A stretch of 64,000 nt of DNA from Escherichia phage REP2, in the sequence record OQ174501.1. One strand, given 5' to 3'. Positions 1-34,042 of this stretch are shown here, one piece after another. The first letter of the stretch is position 1. Every line of letters begins with the position of its first letter. A program made the translations under genes and the position numbers. The notes under the pieces are model-generated. The model saw only the letters and a program-made list of their open reading frames with translations, did not search any database and was not told where the DNA came from.

Positions 1-531
1 GCAGGACTAAGTACTATTATGGAAGGTCTGGAACGTTCTCCAGCGTTCATTCCTATTAAAGAAAAAGGAATTCCATACGAGTATTATCGTCTTCATCAAG
101 TAGACCAAATTAAAATTGCTCCTAATTTGCCAACGCAAATTCTTGACCGTTATGTAAATAGCGAAATGCTTGAACGCATGAGTAAATCCGGATTTGGTTA
201 TCAGCTGAGTAAGTTGGACAAAAAATATCTACAACGTTCTTTAGAATATACTCATCTCGAGCTTGGTGCATGTGGAACAATTCCGGTATTTTGGAAATCT
301 ACTGGCGAAAATTTAAAATTCCGTGTTGATAATACTCCTTTGACCTCGCATGATAGCGGTATCATTTGGTTTGATGAAAATGACATGGAATCAACATTTG
401 AGCGTATTAAAGAACTGTCATCTGACCGAACTCTTTATGACCGTGAACGCGAAAAAGCTTATGAATTTTTGTATCAGCATCAAGATTCAAGCTTCTGCTT
501 TAAAGAACAGTTTGACATTATTACAAAATAA
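1..531 (+). CDS. 3' part of a GT-B glycosyltransferase, by position probably the DNA alpha-glucosyltransferase; 5' end lies upstream of the window
   Basis: Frame open from nt 1 to stop at 529-531; LELGACGTIPVFW resembles the sugar-nucleotide binding region of retaining GT-B enzymes; lies upstream of gene 47 as a-gt does in T4. Confidence 0.5.
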   Translation, partial: AGLSTIMEGLERSPAFIPIKEKGIPYEYYRLHQVDQIKIAPNLPTQILDRYVNSEMLERMSKSGFGYQLSKLDKKYLQRSLEYTHLELGACGTIPVFWKSTGENLKFRVDNTPLTSHDSGIIWFDENDMESTFERIKELSSDRTLYDREREKAYEFLYQHQDSSFCFKEQFDIITK

Positions 532-6605: not shown

Positions 6606-7565
6606 ATGATTACCGTAAATGAAAAAGAACACATTCTTGAACAGAAATATCGTCCATCTACTATCGATGAATGTATTCTTCCCGCCTTTGATAAAGAAAC
6701 CTTTAAATCTATTACAAGTAAAGGTAAGATTCCACATATTATTCTTCATTCTCCTTCTCCAGGAACAGGTAAAACAACTGTAGCAAAAGCATTGTGTCAT
6801 GATGTAAATGCTGATATGATGTTTGTGAATGGGTCAGATTGTAAAATTGATTTCGTTCGCGGTCCTTTGACTAATTTTGCCAGCGCAGCTTCATTTGATG
6901 GTCGTCAAAAAGTAATCGTTATTGATGAATTTGACCGTTCAGGGCTAGCAGAGTCTCAGCGACATCTTCGTTCCTTTATGGAAGCTTATAGTTCAAACTG
7001 TAGTATTATTATTACTGCTAACAATATTGATGGTATTATTAAACCACTTCAGTCACGCTGCCGAGTTATTACATTCGGTCAACCGACCGATGAAGATAAA
7101 ATTGAAATGATGAAGCAGATGATTCGTCGATTGACTGAAATCTGCAAGCATGAAGGAATTGCTATAGCTGATATGAAAGTTGTAGCAGCTTTGGTTAAAA
7201 AGAATTTTCCTGATTTTCGTAAAACTATTGGCGAGCTCGATAGTTATTCATCTAAAGGTGTTTTGGATGCTGGTATTTTATCACTGGTTACTAACGATCG
7301 TGGTGCTATTGATGATGTTCTTGAGTCTCTCAAAAATAAAGATGTTAAACAGCTCAGAGCTTTAGCACCAAAATATGCAGCTGATTATTCGTGGTTCGTA
7401 GGTAAACTTGCCGAAGAAATCTATACACGCGTAACTCCGCAAAGTATTATTCGTATGTATGAAATTGTTGGTGAAAATAACCAGTATCATGGAATTGCGG
7501 CTAATACTGAATTACATTTAGCATATCTTTTCATTCAATTGGCATGTGAAATGCAGTGGAAGTGA
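6606..7565 (+). CDS. 44: clamp loader large subunit gp44 (AAA+ ATPase)
   Basis: 319 aa from the ATG at 6606 (GAGG SD); Walker [15 protein letters not shown] Walker B, SRC motif. Confidence 0.9.
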
Positions 7566-27969: not shown

Positions 27970-28204
27970 ATTGAGTTGGTACCAGTTTAAATCTCTTATG
28001 ACAAATGTTAAAGCTGTCATTGAAGAAAATCCGGGTCCTGAAAATATTACTATTCGCGAAAAAGCTTCAAAGATAGTATACAGTCTTGAAGAGATACAAA
28101 AAGACATTGAATCTATGGCAAAATTTATTGATGAGCCTATTAATAAAGTTTATATTCAAGACTATACTGTAGGTCAAATTCGCGATTTAGCAAGGAAAAT
28201 TTAA
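27962..28204 (+). CDS. hypothetical small protein (third tandem paralog)
   Basis: 80 aa ORF. Confidence 0.4.
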   Translation: MIELSWYQFKSLMTNVKAVIEENPGPENITIREKASKIVYSLEEIQKDIESMAKFIDEPINKVYIQDYTVGQIRDLARKI

Positions 28205-28887
28205 TGTTTGATTTTATTATAGATTTTGAAACAATGGGAAGCGGCGAAAAGGCAGCTGTTATTGATTTAGCTGTAATTGCTTTTGACCCTAATCCAGAAG
28301 TCGTTGAAACATTTGATGAATTAGTTTCACGTGGCATTAAAATCAAGTTTGATTTAAAAAGCCAAAAAGGACATCGTCTTTTTACTAAAAGTACTATCGA
28401 ATGGTGGAAGAATCAATCCCCTGAAGCTCGAAAAAATATTGCACCATCAGATGAAGATGTAAGCACCATCGATGGTATTGCAAAATTTAATGATTACATC
28501 AATGCACATAATATCGATCCTTGGAAATCTCAAGGCTGGTGCCGTGGAATGTCGTTTGATTTTCCAATTTTAGTCGATCTCATTCGTGATATTCAACGTC
28601 TTAATGGTGTTTCTGAGAATGAGCTTGACACATTTAAGTTAGAACCGTGTAAATTCTGGAATCAGCGTGATATTCGTACCAGAATTGAAGCACTTCTGCT
28701 TGTTCGTGATATGACCACATGTCCTCTTCCAAAGGGAACTTTAGATGGATTCGTTGCACATGATTCTATTCATGACTGTGCGAAAGACATCCTGATGATG
28801 AAGTATGCTTTGCGATATGCTATGGGTCTTGAAGATGCTCCGTCAGAGGAAGAGTGCGATCCTCTGTCTCTTCCAACAAAACGATAA
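28204..28887 (+). CDS. dexA: exonuclease A DexA (DEDD family)
   Basis: 227 aa; N-terminal FIIDFETMG DEDD exonuclease motif. Confidence 0.8.
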   Translation: MFDFIIDFETMGSGEKAAVIDLAVIAFDPNPEVVETFDELVSRGIKIKFDLKSQKGHRLFTKSTIEWWKNQSPEARKNIAPSDEDVSTIDGIAKFNDYINAHNIDPWKSQGWCRGMSFDFPILVDLIRDIQRLNGVSENELDTFKLEPCKFWNQRDIRTRIEALLLVRDMTTCPLPKGTLDGFVAHDSIHDCAKDILMMKYALRYAMGLEDAPSEEECDPLSLPTKR

Positions 28888-28893
28888 AAAGTT

Positions 28894-28923
28894 GTTTACT
28901 TCCTCGGTTAGTTGTGGTATTAT
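28894..28923 (+). promoter_or_regulatory. T4-type early promoter
   Basis: gtttac, 18-bp spacer, tattat. Confidence 0.45.
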
Positions 28924-28950
28924 AACACCATAGCTACTGAGGATAATAAA

Positions 28951-29451
28951 ATGAAAATTTATCGTGTTGAATCATCGTTTAGTATTCTTGATTATGAAGA
29001 TGCTATAACAATACGTCGAAATCTTTGTGTTCAAATAACGCCGTACAGGAGTATAATAGATTCATGGAGCGAAGAGTGGCTATTACACGTAGGTTATGAC
29101 AGACCTAATTTTATGCATCATAGCGATAATAATAAAAGAATTCCTTTACCACACGAAGATAAACTATTAGTTAAAAACGCTAATATAGTAATTAATACTA
29201 AGTTCAAGAAAGATTATGTTGGAGTAGAATATCATATTCCCGGATGGTTTATAGCTCTTTATCATTTTGCTTTTGCTAGCGAATATGATATGATGAGATG
29301 GTTCACACGAGAAGAGCGTGAAGAATTATCTTCGAAAGGATTTTATCTTGCTGTATACGAAGTACCAGATGACCAAGTTATCGTTGGCGGGCATCAAGTA
29401 ATGTTCCGCAAATCTCATGCCGAACTAAAAGGCTTTATTACCTTAGATTAA
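28951..29451 (+). CDS. MotB-like early protein (position of T4 motB)
   Basis: 166 aa from the ATG at 28951 with GAGGA SD. Confidence 0.45.
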   Translation: MKIYRVESSFSILDYEDAITIRRNLCVQITPYRSIIDSWSEEWLLHVGYDRPNFMHHSDNNKRIPLPHEDKLLVKNANIVINTKFKKDYVGVEYHIPGWFIALYHFAFASEYDMMRWFTREEREELSSKGFYLAVYEVPDDQVIVGGHQVMFRKSHAELKGFITLD

Positions 29452-29461
29452 AGAGAAAATT

Positions 29462-29965
29462 ATGATTAAAAATAATGCTGTTTATCAATTGAAAAAATTT
29501 GATGAAATTAAGAATTTTCCGGTACTGTCTAATACAGCTCATAATAAGTTTTGTGAACTTCTTGCTTTAACTGGCGGATATCCTTTTACTGTTATTAGTG
29601 TTAATAGCGGAATTCTTATCGGCATGATGTATATTGAAATTAGAAACTATTATGGAATGGTGTCATCGCTTATTATTTATGAAAAAGATTTTAGTCTATT
29701 GACAGAAATTGAAAAAGAAGAACAGGAAAAATCCCATATTGATATGGATTTAGTTTCTATGTATGTGGCACCAGTTGAAAAAATTGAAGACCCGACTGAT
29801 TTGTTGTGTAAGGCAGTTTACATTCGTCGTCCATTCGCGAATCCGGTCGGTGGTTGGGTAACTGACCAGTGGATTGAAGATGGCGTTGAACTTCTGAACG
29901 TAGTTCATGCTGGAGAATACTCTGTAGTTCCTCGTAGCGCAGTGATTAATGTTCGTGTAAGCTAG
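29462..29965 (+). CDS. hypothetical protein, paralog A with conserved C-terminal TDQW(I/V)EDGV module
   Basis: 167 aa ORF. Confidence 0.5.
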   Translation: MIKNNAVYQLKKFDEIKNFPVLSNTAHNKFCELLALTGGYPFTVISVNSGILIGMMYIEIRNYYGMVSSLIIYEKDFSLLTEIEKEEQEKSHIDMDLVSMYVAPVEKIEDPTDLLCKAVYIRRPFANPVGGWVTDQWIEDGVELLNVVHAGEYSVVPRSAVINVRVS

Positions 29966-29994
29966 TTTACAAACTCTTGGGACCAGAGTATAAT
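29965..29994 (+). promoter_or_regulatory. T4-type early promoter with inverted repeat around the -10 (PeSL-like)
   Basis: gtttac 29965-29970, tataat 29989-29994; gggacca/tggtcc inverted repeat flanks the -10. Confidence 0.55.
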
Positions 29995-30038
29995 GGTCCT
30001 GTGGAGTATAAAATCTTTTTAACAAGTGAGAGATAATT

Positions 30039-30530
30039 ATGAATATTAATATCGGCGAAATTGCTCGTGTATCTGATAAATCCCGTTCTAAAGCAGCAGG
30101 AAAATTGGTCGAAGTTGTAAGCATTCAGCTTAAACACGGTGTTAAAGATGAAGATTCTGAAGTAAAAGTACGTATCATTGCTAAAGATGGAATGTCTAAG
30201 CCCCAGTTTGGTTATGTTCGATGGAAATTTCTTGAGCCTGCGTTTTTGAAAGCTGTTCCTGCTAAAGGAATTGAAACGATTGATACTTCGCATGTAGGTG
30301 TAGACTTTAAGTGGAAACTTGGTCAAGCTATCAAGTTCATTGCTCCTTATGAGTTTGAATTTATCGAAGGTGGACAACCACTTCCTCGGCGTACTCGCGC
30401 TATGTGTGCATACATTACTGATCAATGGGTAGAAGATGGCGTTAAGTTATACAACGCGGTATTTTTAGGAACATACAAAGTCATTCCTGAAAGTTGGATT
30501 AAACACTATAGCAAAGCTCGCTATGCATAA
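30039..30530 (+). CDS. hypothetical protein, paralog B with conserved C-terminal TDQW(I/V)EDGV module
   Basis: 163 aa ORF. Confidence 0.5.
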   Translation: MNINIGEIARVSDKSRSKAAGKLVEVVSIQLKHGVKDEDSEVKVRIIAKDGMSKPQFGYVRWKFLEPAFLKAVPAKGIETIDTSHVGVDFKWKLGQAIKFIAPYEFEFIEGGQPLPRRTRAMCAYITDQWVEDGVKLYNAVFLGTYKVIPESWIKHYSKARYA

Positions 30531-30702
30531 AGTTTAAAATTTTTTCATAAAACTATATACATCAGTAGTTGATTATGGTACTATATCAATATCAACTACT
30601 GATATAGAAAATAATTTGGAGAATAAAATGGAAAATTTGCTAAAGGTGCTGCTACTCTTCTGAAACGCATCGCTCCAATGTTCAATTAACGAGGAAATTG
30701 TA

Positions 30703-30918
30703 ATGAAACGTAAAATTGTTCAGAACTGCACTAATGACGAATTTGAAGATGTGTTATTCGATCCAGATTTGGTAGTAGTTCAAAAGGAACACACTGCTAA
30801 GTTTACTCACTTGACTTCGGTTTATGTGTATGAAAAGGTTGGGGATAAACAACCAATTTACGGTGTATTTCGTGAAATCACTGAAGATGGTACAACTTAC
30901 TGGAAGGAAATTTATTAA
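30703..30918 (+). CDS. hypothetical small protein
   Basis: 71 aa ORF with GAGGA SD. Confidence 0.45.
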
Positions 30919-31337
30919 TGGCTATTAAATTTGAAGTTAATAAATGGTATCAATTTAAAAATAAACAAGCTCAAGAAAATTTTATTAAAGACCATACTGA
31001 TAACGGAATCTATGCGCGGCGTTTAGGTATGGAACCTTTTAAAGTTATAGATATTGACCATCTTGGTCGTCCTACTAAAATTGTGACATCTACTGGAAGA
31101 TTGGCGTTATCCTCCGGTAAAGATATTTTGGATGAAGATTTTATTTGGCTTTCAACGAGCGAAGCTGAGTTCTTTAATGAAGTGGAAAATCCATATCAGG
31201 CAGCTGAAGAACAAGAGCAGGAAGAGCAAGAACAAATAGAAGATTTCACAGAATTCCCGATCATGAAAGTTACTATTGAAAATAATGAACAAGCATGGTC
31301 CTTGTATCAGATGTTGAAAGCACACTTTAAGGAATAA
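30918..31337 (+). CDS. hypothetical acidic protein
   Basis: 139 aa; [10 protein letters not shown] acidic stretch. Confidence 0.45.
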
Positions 31338-31339
31338 TT

Positions 31340-31516
31340 ATGCCAATGTATGATTATAAATGCCAATCCGAAGATTGCGGGCATGAATATGAAAAAATTA
31401 AAAAGATTTCTGAACGAGAAAATGATGTTTGCCCTAAATGTCATCGTCTGTCTACTCGTCGGCCTTCTGCTCCTAAGCATGTGAATGGTGGATTTTACGA
31501 CTTACTTAAAGGGTAA
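31340..31516 (+). CDS. small zinc-ribbon protein
   Basis: 58 aa; YKCQSEDCGHEY and CPKCH CxxC pairs. Confidence 0.4.
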   Translation: MPMYDYKCQSEDCGHEYEKIKKISERENDVCPKCHRLSTRRPSAPKHVNGGFYDLLKG

Positions 31517-31518
31517 TT

Positions 31519-31890
31519 ATGTTTAAAATCGGTAAGAAATATCGCATTCGTGAAGGTGAAGAACAGAAATATCTACTTTCTGCTAGTAATAGGAATAGTT
31601 CTATTAATGCTGTAATATTGACTAGTGAATTTATCGTTGAAGATATGAAAGGTCATAATGTTACAATGATTAGTACAGCATCTGGAAATGATGGAAAAAT
31701 TCTTCACAGTTTTCAGAGTAATGTTCTAATATATGATGAAGAATTTGACCTATTCGAAGAAGTCCCCGAAGGTTTTGATTTTGAATGCACTATCACTATG
31801 AAATCTGGTGACCCTCTTTCATTTACGGTTAAAGATGAAAGAAGTCGCTTGAGAATTATTAGTCTCCTTCAAGCCATTAAATTTGAGTGA
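31519..31890 (+). CDS. hypothetical protein
   Basis: 123 aa ORF. Confidence 0.45.
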   Translation: MFKIGKKYRIREGEEQKYLLSASNRNSSINAVILTSEFIVEDMKGHNVTMISTASGNDGKILHSFQSNVLIYDEEFDLFEEVPEGFDFECTITMKSGDPLSFTVKDERSRLRIISLLQAIKFE

Positions 31891-31894
31891 AATT

Positions 31895-32155
31895 ATGAAA
31901 TATATTAATCGTTCTATCGCAGCATTAGTATTAGCAGTGTCTTTAGCAGGATGTACTGATACTGATAATGCAACCAAAATTTTGTCATCAAGCGGTTTTA
32001 CTAATATTGAAATCACTGGATACAACTGGTTCGGTTGCTCTGAAAATGATTTCCAACATACTGGATTTCGTGCTATTGGACCTACTGGGCAGAAAGTAGA
32101 AGGAACCGTGTGTTCTGGTCTATTCTTCAAGGATTCGACTATCCGTTTTAAATAA
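31895..32155 (+). CDS. hypothetical lipoprotein
   Basis: 86 aa from the ATG at 31895; signal plus lipobox LAGC. Confidence 0.45.
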   Translation: MKYINRSIAALVLAVSLAGCTDTDNATKILSSSGFTNIEITGYNWFGCSENDFQHTGFRAIGPTGQKVEGTVCSGLFFKDSTIRFK

Positions 32156-32175
32156 AAGGCCTTCGGGCCTTTAGC
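32156..32175 (+). terminator. terminator-like hairpin (GGCC-UUCG-GGCC) with U-rich tail
   Basis: aaggccttcgggcctttagcttt; same hairpin-ctttagcttt architecture as at 532-556. Confidence 0.4.
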
Positions 32176-32224
32176 TTTATGATTACCGGAGTATAATATT
32201 CCCGAAACCAAACGAGGATAAGTG

Positions 32225-34042
32225 ATGATTAAGAATGAAATTAAAATTCTGAGCGATATTGAACATATCAAAAAGCGTAGCGGCATGTATATTGGCTCTT
32301 CTGCTAATGAAATGCATGAGCGCTTTCTGTTTGGTAAATGGGAAAGTGTTCAGTATGTACCTGGTCTTGTTAAGCTTATTGATGAAATTATCGATAACTC
32401 AGTAGATGAAGGTATTCGTACTAAGTTTAAATTCGCAAATAAAATTAATGTTACTATTAAAAACAATCAAGTAACAGTTGAAGATAACGGTCGCGGTATT
32501 CCACAAGCGATGGTTAAAACACCTACCGGTGAAGAAATTCCTGGTCCTGTTGCTGCATGGACTATTCCAAAAGCAGGTGGTAACTTTGGTGATGATAAAG
32601 AACGCGTCACTGGCGGTATGAATGGTGTTGGTTCTAGTTTGACAAACATTTTTTCTGTGATGTTTGTCGGTGAAACTGGTGATGGTCAAAATAATATTGT
32701 AGTTCGTTGTTCAAATGGCATGGAAAATAAATCATGGGAAACTATTCCTGGAAAATGGAAAGGAACTCGTGTTACTTTCATTCCTGATTTTATGTCATTT
32801 GAAACTAATGAGCTGTCCCAAGTTTATCTTGACATTACACTAGATCGTCTCCAGACACTTGCAGTAGTTTATCCTGATATTCAATTTACCTTTAATGGTA
32901 AAAAGGTTCAGGGCAATTTTAAGAAATATGCACGCCAATATGATGAGCATGCTATTGTTCAAGAACAAGAAAATTGCTCTATTGCGGTTGGTCGTTCACC
33001 GGATGGTTTTCGTCAATTAACTTATGTGAATAACATTCACACTAAGAATGGTGGCCATCACATTGACTGTGTTATGGATGATATTTGTGAAGACCTTATT
33101 CCACAAATCAAACGTAAGTTCAAAATTGATGTGACTAAAGCACGCGTTAAAGAATGTTTGACTATCGTTATGTTTGTTCGTGATATGAAAAACATGCGAT
33201 TTGATTCTCAAACTAAAGAGCGTTTGACTTCTCCATTTGGTGAAATCCGTAGTCATATTCAGCTTGATGCTAAAAAGATTTCACGTGCTATTTTGAATAA
33301 TGAAGCAATTCTGATGCCAATTATTGAAGCTGCACTAGCTCGTAAATTGGCGGCGGAAAAGGCAGCAGAAACTAAAGCAGCTAAAAAGGCTTCTAAAGCT
33401 AAGGTTCATAAACATATTAAAGCGAATCTTTGTGGTAAAGATGCTGACACTACTCTTTTCTTGACTGAGGGTGATTCGGCTATCGGATATCTTATTGATG
33501 TTCGTGATAAAGAACTTCACGGTGGTTATCCATTGCGCGGTAAAGTTCTCAACAGTTGGGGTATGTCTTATGCAGATATGCTTAAAAACAAAGAACTATT
33601 TGATATTTGCGCAATCACTGGATTAGTTCTCGGTGAAAAAGCTGAAAACTTGAATTATCATAATATTGCTATTATGACTGATGCTGACCATGATGGTCTA
33701 GGAAGCATTTATCCTTCTCTGCTCGGATTTTTTAGTAATTGGCCAGAATTGTTTGAGCAAGGACGAATTCGCTTTGTCAAAACTCCTGTAATCATCGCTC
33801 AGGTCGGTAAAAAACAAGAATGGTTTTATACAGTCGCTGAATATGAGAGTGCCAAAGATGCTCTACCTAAACATAGCATCCGTTATATTAAAGGACTTGG
33901 CTCTTTGGAAAAATCTGAATATCGTGAGATGATTCAAAATCCAGTATATGATGTTGTTAAACTTCCTGAGAACTGGAAAGAGCTTTTTGAAATGCTCATG
34001 GGAGATAATGCTGACCTTCGTAAAGAATGGATGAGCCAGTAG
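32225..34042 (+). CDS. 39: DNA topoisomerase II large subunit, uninterrupted gene 39 plus 60 (GyrB-like ATPase and Toprim)
   Basis: 605 aa; GHKL ATPase region, Toprim TEGDSA and DADHDG; the residues around the T4 gene 60 bypass site (DADHDG-LGSIYPSL) are encoded contiguously. Confidence 0.85.
   Translation: MIKNEIKILSDIEHIKKRSGMYIGSSANEMHERFLFGKWESVQYVPGLVKLIDEIIDNSVDEGIRTKFKFANKINVTIKNNQVTVEDNGRGIPQAMVKTPTGEEIPGPVAAWTIPKAGGNFGDDKERVTGGMNGVGSSLTNIFSVMFVGETGDGQNNIVVRCSNGMENKSWETIPGKWKGTRVTFIPDFMSFETNELSQVYLDITLDRLQTLAVVYPDIQFTFNGKKVQGNFKKYARQYDEHAIVQEQENCSIAVGRSPDGFRQLTYVNNIHTKNGGHHIDCVMDDICEDLIPQIKRKFKIDVTKARVKECLTIVMFVRDMKNMRFDSQTKERLTSPFGEIRSHIQLDAKKISRAILNNEAILMPIIEAALARKLAAEKAAETKAAKKASKAKVHKHIKANLCGKDADTTLFLTEGDSAIGYLIDVRDKELHGGYPLRGKVLNSWGMSYADMLKNKELFDICAITGLVLGEKAENLNYHNIAIMTDADHDGLGSIYPSLLGFFSNWPELFEQGRIRFVKTPVIIAQVGKKQEWFYTVAEYESAKDALPKHSIRYIKGLGSLEKSEYREMIQNPVYDVVKLPENWKELFEMLMGDNADLRKEWMSQ

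Follow-up and report, generated by a model that had tools for sequence, protein, structure and literature searches.

The tandem genes motB.1 and motB of a T4-like phage: a shared C-terminal module behind different small N-terminal domains

Introduction

The closest described systems are the MotB and MotB.1 proteins of phage T4, the published biology of which is found in PMC6070864, PMC7827196 and PMC12152347. T4 MotB is a tight, sequence-unspecific binder of double-stranded DNA, is toxic if overproduced, co-purifies with H-NS and StpA on DNA and modifies the footprint of H-NS; among the host genes that it up-regulates, about 30% were assigned as H-NS-regulated, and the burst size was doubled (PMC6070864, PMC7827196). 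MotB.1 is non-essential and has no established activity (PMC12152347). It was described in 2021 that MotB and MotB.1 have the C-terminal domain in common and differ in their N-terminal domains, with duplication as a possible explanation of one of the two genes (Viruses 2021;13:84, PMC7827196, section 3.2), and further categories with other N-termini were described in the same paper. By HHpred the N-terminus of MotB was assigned there to the KOW domains and the shared domain was placed in the cold-shock OB-fold DNA-binding family, with either MotB domain being considered able to bind DNA (PMC7827196). More recently, the N-terminal domain of MotB.1 was reported to have an LSm-like fold that is common to GoF and Frd.2 (Kim et al. 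2025, PMC12152347).

Here we analyse the corresponding locus in a stretch of 64,000 nucleotides from Escherichia phage REP2 (OQ174501.1; hereafter the window), for which it had been predicted from the letters alone that two neighbouring early genes share a C-terminal module. Since the relationship was published in 2021 and is contained in the Pfam annotation, the observation is correct and already known, and the gain for annotation is small. What is added, on the level of sequence, is that 781 records of enterobacterial T4-like phages contain the module, with about two copies per genome, behind a predicted KOW domain or one to three predicted LSm-like domains, that the module is acidic in the MotB.1-type proteins as calculated from their sequences, and that motB.1 of the T4 reference, when compared with other assemblies, is cut by one extra G. 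Taken as a whole, motB.1 and motB are very probably old tandem paralogs that were assembled from interchangeable small beta-barrel domains, which would make the MotB family a clear case of the shuffling of such domains in the accessory region of a phage genome.

Results and discussion

Identity of the locus and of the two genes

Over 28900-31000 the window has 100% identity with Escherichia phage REP3 and 90-99% with several hundred Tequatrovirus records, and by these identities the source of the window is a Tequatrovirus (T4-like phage). Along the window, dda is followed by two small ORFs, dexA, a 166-aa ORF, a 167-aa ORF, a 163-aa ORF, cef and goF, leading to gene 39, an arrangement that matches the T4 order dexA, motB.2, motB.1, motB, cef, goF on the opposite strand. 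Here motB.1 and motB sit in the dispensable early region that runs from dexA to gene 39. The coordinates given for the 167-aa and the 163-aa ORF in the original prediction are exact, and both of the peptides quoted there are found. The features of the locus are collected in Table 1.

Table 1. Features of the motB.1-motB locus in the window (nucleotide positions; aa, residue positions in the protein)
Feature	Position	Strand	Basis or remark
motB.1, 167 aa, long form	29462..29965	+	phrog_2333 5.2e-82 (residues 1-166), T4 synteny
MotB.1 N-terminal domain, aa 1-83, predicted LSm-like/SH3-like barrel	29462..29710	+	AF2, Kim et al. 2025
Linker motif HIDMDLVSMYVAPVEKI, aa 92-108	29735..29785	+	in 22-aa segment absent from T4 MotB.1
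Shared C-terminal module of MotB.1, aa 114-165	29801..29956	+	hhalign against MotB family, AF2
Sigma-70-type promoter-like site upstream of motB, TTTACA-17-TATAAT	29966..29994	+	11/12 consensus match
motB, 163 aa	30039..30530	+	Pfam PF17613 full length, phrog_1671 2.5e-75
MotB N-terminal domain, aa 1-68, predicted basic KOW-like/SH3-like barrel	30039..30242	+	AF2, charge, HHpred (PMC7827196)
Shared C-terminal module of MotB, aa 93-157	30315..30509	+	hhalign, module alignment, AF2
123-aa ORF, N-terminal domain homologous to that of MotB.1, GoF/Frd.2-type	31519..31890	+	hhalign, BLASTP, PHROG
C-terminal strands of MotB.1 (AF2)	aa 118-121, 129-139, 142-149, 152-157, 161-163		helical turn aa 158-160; linker aa 87-106
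C-terminal strands of MotB (AF2)	aa 97-108, 117-132, 135-142, 145-150, 154-158		helical turn aa 151-153; linker aa 70-83

The 163-aa protein is matched by the Pfam profile PF17613 at 315.3 bits (E 9e-95, profile positions 1-162), and thus has the full architecture of a KOW domain plus the module. The 167-aa ORF is placed between motB.2 and motB, as is motB.1 in T4, and it belongs to the MotB.1 group (phrog_2333; Category 2 of PMC7827196) by its end-to-end similarity and its location just upstream of motB; it is 98% identical to its closest cluster (P0001) and 66-84% identical to the MotB.1 forms of 143-145 aa. In the HMM search it is matched by PF17613 at 33.3 bits through residues 122-161 only, corresponding to profile positions 114-153, i.e., to the shared module. 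This score exceeds the curated gathering threshold, which is 25 bits for the whole protein, but residues 1-113 are unmatched by the MotB profile and the full-length KOW-plus-module architecture is absent. Pfam-based pipelines label MotB.1 as 'motB_2' or 'transcriptional regulator'. Since MotB.1 is related to MotB through one domain and is no ortholog of it, these labels over-reach in some records. There is thus hardly any doubt that the 167-aa ORF is motB.1, that the 163-aa ORF is motB and that the two are paralogous to each other.

It is also noted that some records name all three genes of the row, MotB.2, MotB.1 and MotB, 'transcriptional regulator'. MotB.2 (28951-29451) was considered as a third paralog and was rejected, with hhalign probabilities of less than 1% against both families; its match to Pfam SRA is weak (E 0.088) and its sequence matches in the PDB have E > 0.1, none of these being significant. 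An Rfam scan of 28000-32500 gave no match.

Homology of the shared C-terminal module

It had been predicted that the two proteins share about 45 similar C-terminal residues behind divergent N-terminal halves. In the pairwise alignment by BLASTP, MotB.1 and MotB match over 31 ungapped residues, of which 16 are identical and 22 positive (41.2 bits, E 8e-10), and the Smith-Waterman score of 98 is to be compared with 28.7 +/- 4.7 (maximum 52) in 2000 shuffles, giving z 14.9. For the profile-profile comparison, cluster representatives of both families were gathered (231 MotB.1-type at E <= 0.001 and 105 MotB-type) and a non-redundant subset of each was aligned. With these profiles hhalign aligns MotB.1 114-165 to MotB 93-157 at a probability of 98.7% (E 3.5e-16) over 51 columns, so that the predicted length is about right and slightly short, and in the same comparison no N-terminal similarity is detected between MotB.1 and MotB, as had been expected for the N-terminal halves. 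The similarity is therefore far beyond chance by all three measures, and on these alignment statistics the homology of the two C-terminal modules is statistically secure.

The module has about 52-65 residues, with the core GW(V/I)TDQW(I/V)EDGV.L.N.V..G.Y.V.P. In the module of MotB, 14 additional residues (aa 105-118, nt 30351-30392) are inserted between strands 1 and 2, by which the first hairpin is lengthened. T4 MotB has the same length class and genomic position as MotB of the window, and the main difference between them is in the loop of this first hairpin, which reads EFIEGGQPLPRRTR in the window and NFIKDDGRVVYTR in T4. When the 64-kb window was searched by tblastn with the two modules and the two N-terminal halves as queries, no further copies of the module turned up. 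All of the 24 isolated modules that were compared with Pfam match PF17613 and no other family, and neither a profile nor a sequence match was found between the module and PDB chains.

Two other explanations of the resemblance have to be weighed against an old duplication. One is that the match is due to chance or low complexity and that the upstream ORF is no real gene, as might be argued from the BLAST match being short (31 residues). This is refuted by the pairwise, shuffle and profile statistics given above, and the upstream ORF, for which 231 homologous clusters were obtained at E <= 0.001, is a conserved one (phrog_2333), so that we give this explanation practically no weight. The other is that recombination or gene conversion of recent date has kept the neighbouring genes similar, which would require neither an old duplication nor a conserved function. 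The region is indeed recombinogenic, as seen from the difference of a 66-nt segment relative to T4, a 43-aa MotB.2/MotB.1 fusion product and the many domain architectures. However, over the 31 codons of the core, motB.1 and motB have a DNA identity of merely 56%, with 13 of the 31 third positions (42%) being identical, implying that the divergence is old and that no recent gene conversion has taken place. Moreover, the two module classes stay distinct across hundreds of phages, one with ELLNVVH and the other with KLYN.VF, and with or without the 14-aa insertion. Recent gene conversion as the source of the similarity is thus ruled out by the third-position divergence, and an explanation of this kind is on the whole very improbable.

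Predicted structure and fold class

The AF2 models have mean pLDDT values of 77 (MotB.1) and 79 (MotB), and each of them consists of two small beta-barrels and a linker of low confidence, the pLDDT being below 50 across residues 87-106 of MotB.1. In the N-terminal domain of MotB.1 (pLDDT about 85) the strands are at residues 7-10, 42-49, 55-61, 67-73 and 80-83, with a helix at 24-37, which in the predicted model gives the bent five-stranded antiparallel beta-sheet at the N-terminus that characterizes the LSm-like fold. In the N-terminal domain of MotB the strands are at residues 8-11, 23-30, 41-46, 56-61 and 65-67; this domain has a net charge of +4, and the pI of the whole MotB of the window is 9.4, compared with 4.95 for its MotB.1.

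The two C-terminal modules are predicted to have the same order of five strands (Table 1), in line with the common origin indicated by the alignments. In both of them strands 3 and 4 are joined by a turn of two residues and a short helical turn comes between strands 4 and 5; the motif TDQW(I/V)EDG makes up the last part of strand 2 together with the turn that leads into strand 3. Such a placing of the turns is typical of SH3/Tudor/KOW-like barrels and not of OB folds. When the whole two-domain models were compared with the PDB by Foldseek, the matches were tandem Tudor domains (53BP1, UHRF1), SAWADEE and KOW6-KOW7 of Spt5 (DSIF), with E 5e-4 and 4e-3 and with TM-scores of 0.25-0.28, which are low because whole models were used and the inter-domain geometry differs. 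These tandem readers resemble both of our models in having two SH3-like barrels in tandem; they have no sequence relationship to MotB or MotB.1, and the likeness is thus one of fold class, not of membership. Among viral models, Foldseek recovered family members, a KOW protein and GoF. Based on the models, we lean towards an SH3-like rather than an OB fold for the shared module.

Domain shuffling in the MotB family

A search of 1.84 billion representatives with the profile of the isolated module gave only 37 matches, of which 29 are proteins of 43-251 aa. Eighteen new sequences were examined, and all of them except P0247 are plainly family members, one being a 43-aa fragment of a MotB.2/MotB.1 fusion; in P0247 the C-terminal module follows a different N-terminus. 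The other eight matches (601-2759 aa, E 3e-9 to 1e-3) were judged to be repeat noise: seven of them match a short stretch repeatedly, and for the eighth, P0245, no matching stretch is listed. By tblastn, the module is found at 1448 places in the 781 phage records, usually two per genome, and every organism name listed among these matches is that of a phage of an enterobacterial host.

The architectures of the family span 129-252 aa, and the N-termini that are joined to the module are KOW-like (MotB), one LSm-like domain (MotB.1) or two or three LSm-like domains (244-252 aa). The linker of MotB.1 carries a motif with the family consensus hhDxDhxSxYxxPhxPL (DxDxxSxY), which is present in 102 of the 255 family representatives and is located upstream of the core at a distance of about 40, 130 or 210 residues, i.e., before zero, one or two inserted barrels. 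In two proteins the parts are combined in yet another way. P0049 is a hybrid that aligns by BLASTP with MotB from end to end, the N-terminal half included, and is 51% identical to MotB.1 over 119 columns, most strongly over the motif and the C-terminal module. Like P0049, P0083 of a Klebsiella phage aligns with MotB over the whole length and has a linker motif and a C-terminal module of the MotB.1 type. The two hybrids imply that the subtype of the module and the type of the N-terminus are not locked together.

The neighbourhood of motB.1 in the window itself points in the same direction. The 123-aa product of the ORF at 31519-31890 matches the MotB.1 family in hhalign with a probability of 90% (E 1.5e-6) over 85 columns, has a BLASTP match to P0030 at E 2e-4, and matches both phrog_622, as does GoF, and phrog_2333 at 7e-4. 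As a single sequence GoF has no significant match to the MotB.1 profile, and it is this ORF that connects MotB.1 to the GoF family. As far as sequence comparison goes, this shows that each half of MotB.1 has its counterpart in a different neighbour, the C-terminal half in MotB and the N-terminal half in the 123-aa ORF product. Note also that the family of GoF together with MotB.1 and Frd.2 (Kim et al. 2025, Comput Struct Biotechnol J 27:2051) resembles MotB.1 of the window in the five antiparallel strands at the N-terminus; it is defined by the N-terminal domain only, with GoF and Frd.2 having no C-terminal module.

From the varied N-termini behind one and the same module, and from the halves of MotB.1 being common to different neighbours, we infer a duplication followed by domain replacement or insertion, and this history of motB.1 and motB, with the replacement or insertion at the N-terminus, is supported by the sequence comparisons. 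Of the duplication with swapping of N-terminal specificity that had been suggested, the duplication and the N-terminal exchange are thus borne out, the same MotB.1-type module being found with different N-termini, and the swapping of specificity can only be inferred from them. Since the most divergent of the listed members (P0233-P0242, P0252 and P0253) have a KOW-like N-terminus, KOW plus module is probably the earlier arrangement.

An extra G in motB.1 of the T4 reference

T4 MotB.1 has the same position upstream of motB, and the same N-terminal domain and C-terminal core, as MotB.1 of the window. By contrast, its length is 119 aa in the reference or 143 aa in other assemblies, compared with 167 aa in the window, and it lacks the 22-aa linker segment with the DxDxxSxY motif, the absence of which is seen as a 66-nt gap in T4 when the DNA is aligned. 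The remaining difference, between the two T4 forms, is located inside the module. In the T4 reference (NC_000866 / AF158101) the protein of 119 aa ends with ...TDQWIGRWR*, because one extra G (GGATTGGAAG in the reference versus GGATT-GAAG in the window) cuts it inside the motif, between TDQWI and EDG, around position 7291 of NC_000866, and what follows of the module is no longer in frame. A 101-nt probe across the site is matched at 100% solely by NC_000866 and AF158101; 13 other T4 assemblies, including T4T, KJ477684-6, MT984581, OL964735 and OZ209023, match it with one base fewer, and in T4T and MT984581 the annotated motB.1 has 432 nt and encodes 143 aa. Among the 218 family representatives that bear the motif, the T4 reference protein alone stops inside it. 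The discrepancy is mentioned neither in Viruses 2021;13:84 nor in Kim et al. 2025.

This has a consequence for the experiments on MotB.1. The constructs of Kim et al. were gene-synthesised and the product of MotB.1 was given as 13.8 kDa (PMC12152347). With this synthesised reference form of 13.8 kDa (119 aa), MotB.1 had no effect on the reporter, and AlphaFold3, for which the truncated 119-aa form was used, gave no support for homomultimers of MotB.1 (Kim et al. 2025, PMC12152347). Judged from the comparison of the assemblies, it seems that the MotB.1 protein expressed and modelled so far is truncated, the cause being a discrepancy of one base in the reference. Since the published work used the form that ends inside the motif, the complete C-terminal module of MotB.1 has never been studied. 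Natural MotB.1 would carry the complete C-terminal domain of MotB, and the earlier negative results on MotB.1 may need to be repeated with the form of 143 aa or 167 aa.

What the shared module may do

We propose, as a tentative suggestion, that the shared module is a common adaptor, which would bind a protein partner or mediate self- or cross-association. According to this proposal, a KOW-like barrel in MotB or an LSm-like barrel in MotB.1 would be tied to the module via the disordered linker, and the module would carry the nucleic-acid-binding heads formed by the different N-termini to one common location, with DNA as the target of the KOW head and RNA as the possible target of the LSm-like head. 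A more specific form of the proposal, in which an SH3/Tudor-like adaptor brings MotB, MotB.1 and their shuffled relatives to one partner in the host nucleoid, is a speculation that we regard as unlikely in this particular form. If it is true, the partner could be H-NS or StpA, or MotB and MotB.1 could bind each other, and one docking domain with interchangeable heads, KOW for DNA and LSm-like for RNA, would constitute a small combinatorial kit for taking over the host.

By contrast, on a rival reading that takes up the cold-shock OB-fold proposed in 2021, the module itself would bind DNA or RNA in MotB and MotB.1 alike, the N-terminal domains merely modulating this activity. This reading is in accord with the HHpred match between MotB residues 69-149 and the OB domain at the C-terminus of archaeal IF5A (PMC7827196), with the basic C-terminal part of MotB of the window (net +4), and with the frequent occurrence of nucleic-acid binding among small barrels of five strands. 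What speaks against this reading is the charge of the module: in each of the 128 MotB.1-type proteins it is acidic, with a mean net charge of -3.6 and no positive value, and on average also in the 107 MotB-type proteins, with a mean of -1.1. The notion that MotB-type proteins are generally basic is not upheld, T4 MotB and MotB of the window standing at the basic end of a family whose average is acidic. In addition, the polar residues that are conserved across both families are acidic or amide ones, with D, E and N being invariant and Q being present in >= 90% of the sequences. The acidic module and the conserved D, Q, E and N argue against the module being a conserved DNA-binding element. Against an OB fold there are also the predicted turns after strand 3 and after strand 4 described above, the top-ranked Foldseek matches, which are Tudor, KOW and SAWADEE domains, and the finding of no profile match to any PDB chain or other Pfam family. 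A nucleic-acid-binding module is therefore doubtful in our judgement. That the module is so consistently acidic speaks for a location of the DNA binding of MotB elsewhere in the protein, which redirects the search for the binding partner of the module.

A promoter-like site upstream of motB

Finally, we note that the early promoter that had been predicted between the two genes is a credible candidate by consensus. The site TTTACA-17-TATAAT is the best match within 28800-30800, and the 73-nt spacer between motB.1 and motB in which it lies is nearly invariant between the window and T4, in contrast to the adjacent end of motB.1, which diverges. The equivalent site in phage wV7 (HM997020) is annotated as 'promoter', likewise by consensus only. 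The promoter call is based on match quality, position and conservation, with enrichment playing no part, the region having 10 promoter-like sites versus 9.1 +/- 3.2 in shuffles, i.e., no excess. A terminator scan of 28800-30800 gave none, and there is no terminator-like site after motB.1. With a strong promoter-like site of its own, motB could be transcribed independently of motB.1.

Frameshift in the T4 reference motB.1

It is noted that MotB.1 of the T4 reference (NC_000866.4) is only 119 aa long because its gene has, relative to the window, one extra G that shifts the frame inside TDQWI|EDG, at the site corresponding to window 29876-29881 (MotB.1 codons I138-E139). The extra G is present only in NC_000866 and AF158101, the second T4 reference record, and is absent from 13 other T4 assemblies; in T4T and MT984581 motB.1 is annotated as 143 aa. 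The MotB.1 constructs in published work were synthesised in the 13.8-kDa form (PMC12152347), and they therefore lack most of the C-terminal module shared by MotB.1 and MotB.

Coordinates of the features (window positions unless another record is named)
Feature	Position	Strand	Remarks
MotB.2	28951-29451	+	listed ORF start is TTG at 28912
Linker motif of MotB.1, hhDxDhxSxYxxPhxPL	29735-29785		second short conserved motif, here HIDMDLVSMYVAPVEKI; MotB.1 aa 92-108; predicted disordered linker
GoF	30918-31337		
123-aa ORF	31519-31890	+	between goF and gene 39
motB.1 of the T4 reference	NC_000866.4, 7291-7650		119 aa

Linker motif and related domains

Of the 255 representatives of the family, 102 carry the linker motif, whose distance to the C-terminal module takes one of three values; it is possibly a short linear interaction motif. 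T4 MotB.1 does not have it, the 66-nt segment concerned being missing there.

The N-terminal domain of the MotB.1 family has a homologue in that of the 123-aa ORF (hhalign 90%, E 1.5e-6), and this ORF, likewise GoF, matches phrog_622. In the same area the T4 reference has instead gene 39.1, which is much shorter, and thus the region between goF and gene 39 varies among phages.

For MotB.2, which several records call 'transcriptional regulator', similarity was detected by hhalign neither to MotB nor to MotB.1 (probability <1%), and the sole hint is a sub-threshold match to Pfam SRA (SET and RING associated), with E 0.088 and 13 bits versus a cut-off of 30.

A metagenomic protein of 43 aa, P0244, consists of MotB.2 residues 1-17 (MKIYRVESSFSILDYED) fused to the last 26 residues of a MotB.1 module (GVELLNVVHAGDFSVVPRSAVVAILN), the two parts corresponding to window 28951-29000 and 29885-29965. 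This arrangement implies a deletion between the MotB.2 and MotB.1 genes, located where the two have a short match (YED / IED), and the product resembles a 29-aa RB69 peptide reported in 2021.

Inverted repeats around motB

The 172-nt gap between motB and cef, 3' of motB, contains a long imperfect inverted repeat (30541-30623) with 40-nt arms that are 70% complementary, the inner core around ATCAGTAGTTGAT / ATCAACTACTGAT pairing better; it has no T-run terminator and no match in Rfam. Upstream of motB, a 6-nt inverted repeat, GGACCA / TGGTCC (29980-29999), has its arms on either side of the promoter-like site's -10 hexamer, and could form a small hairpin in transcripts reading through from motB.1.
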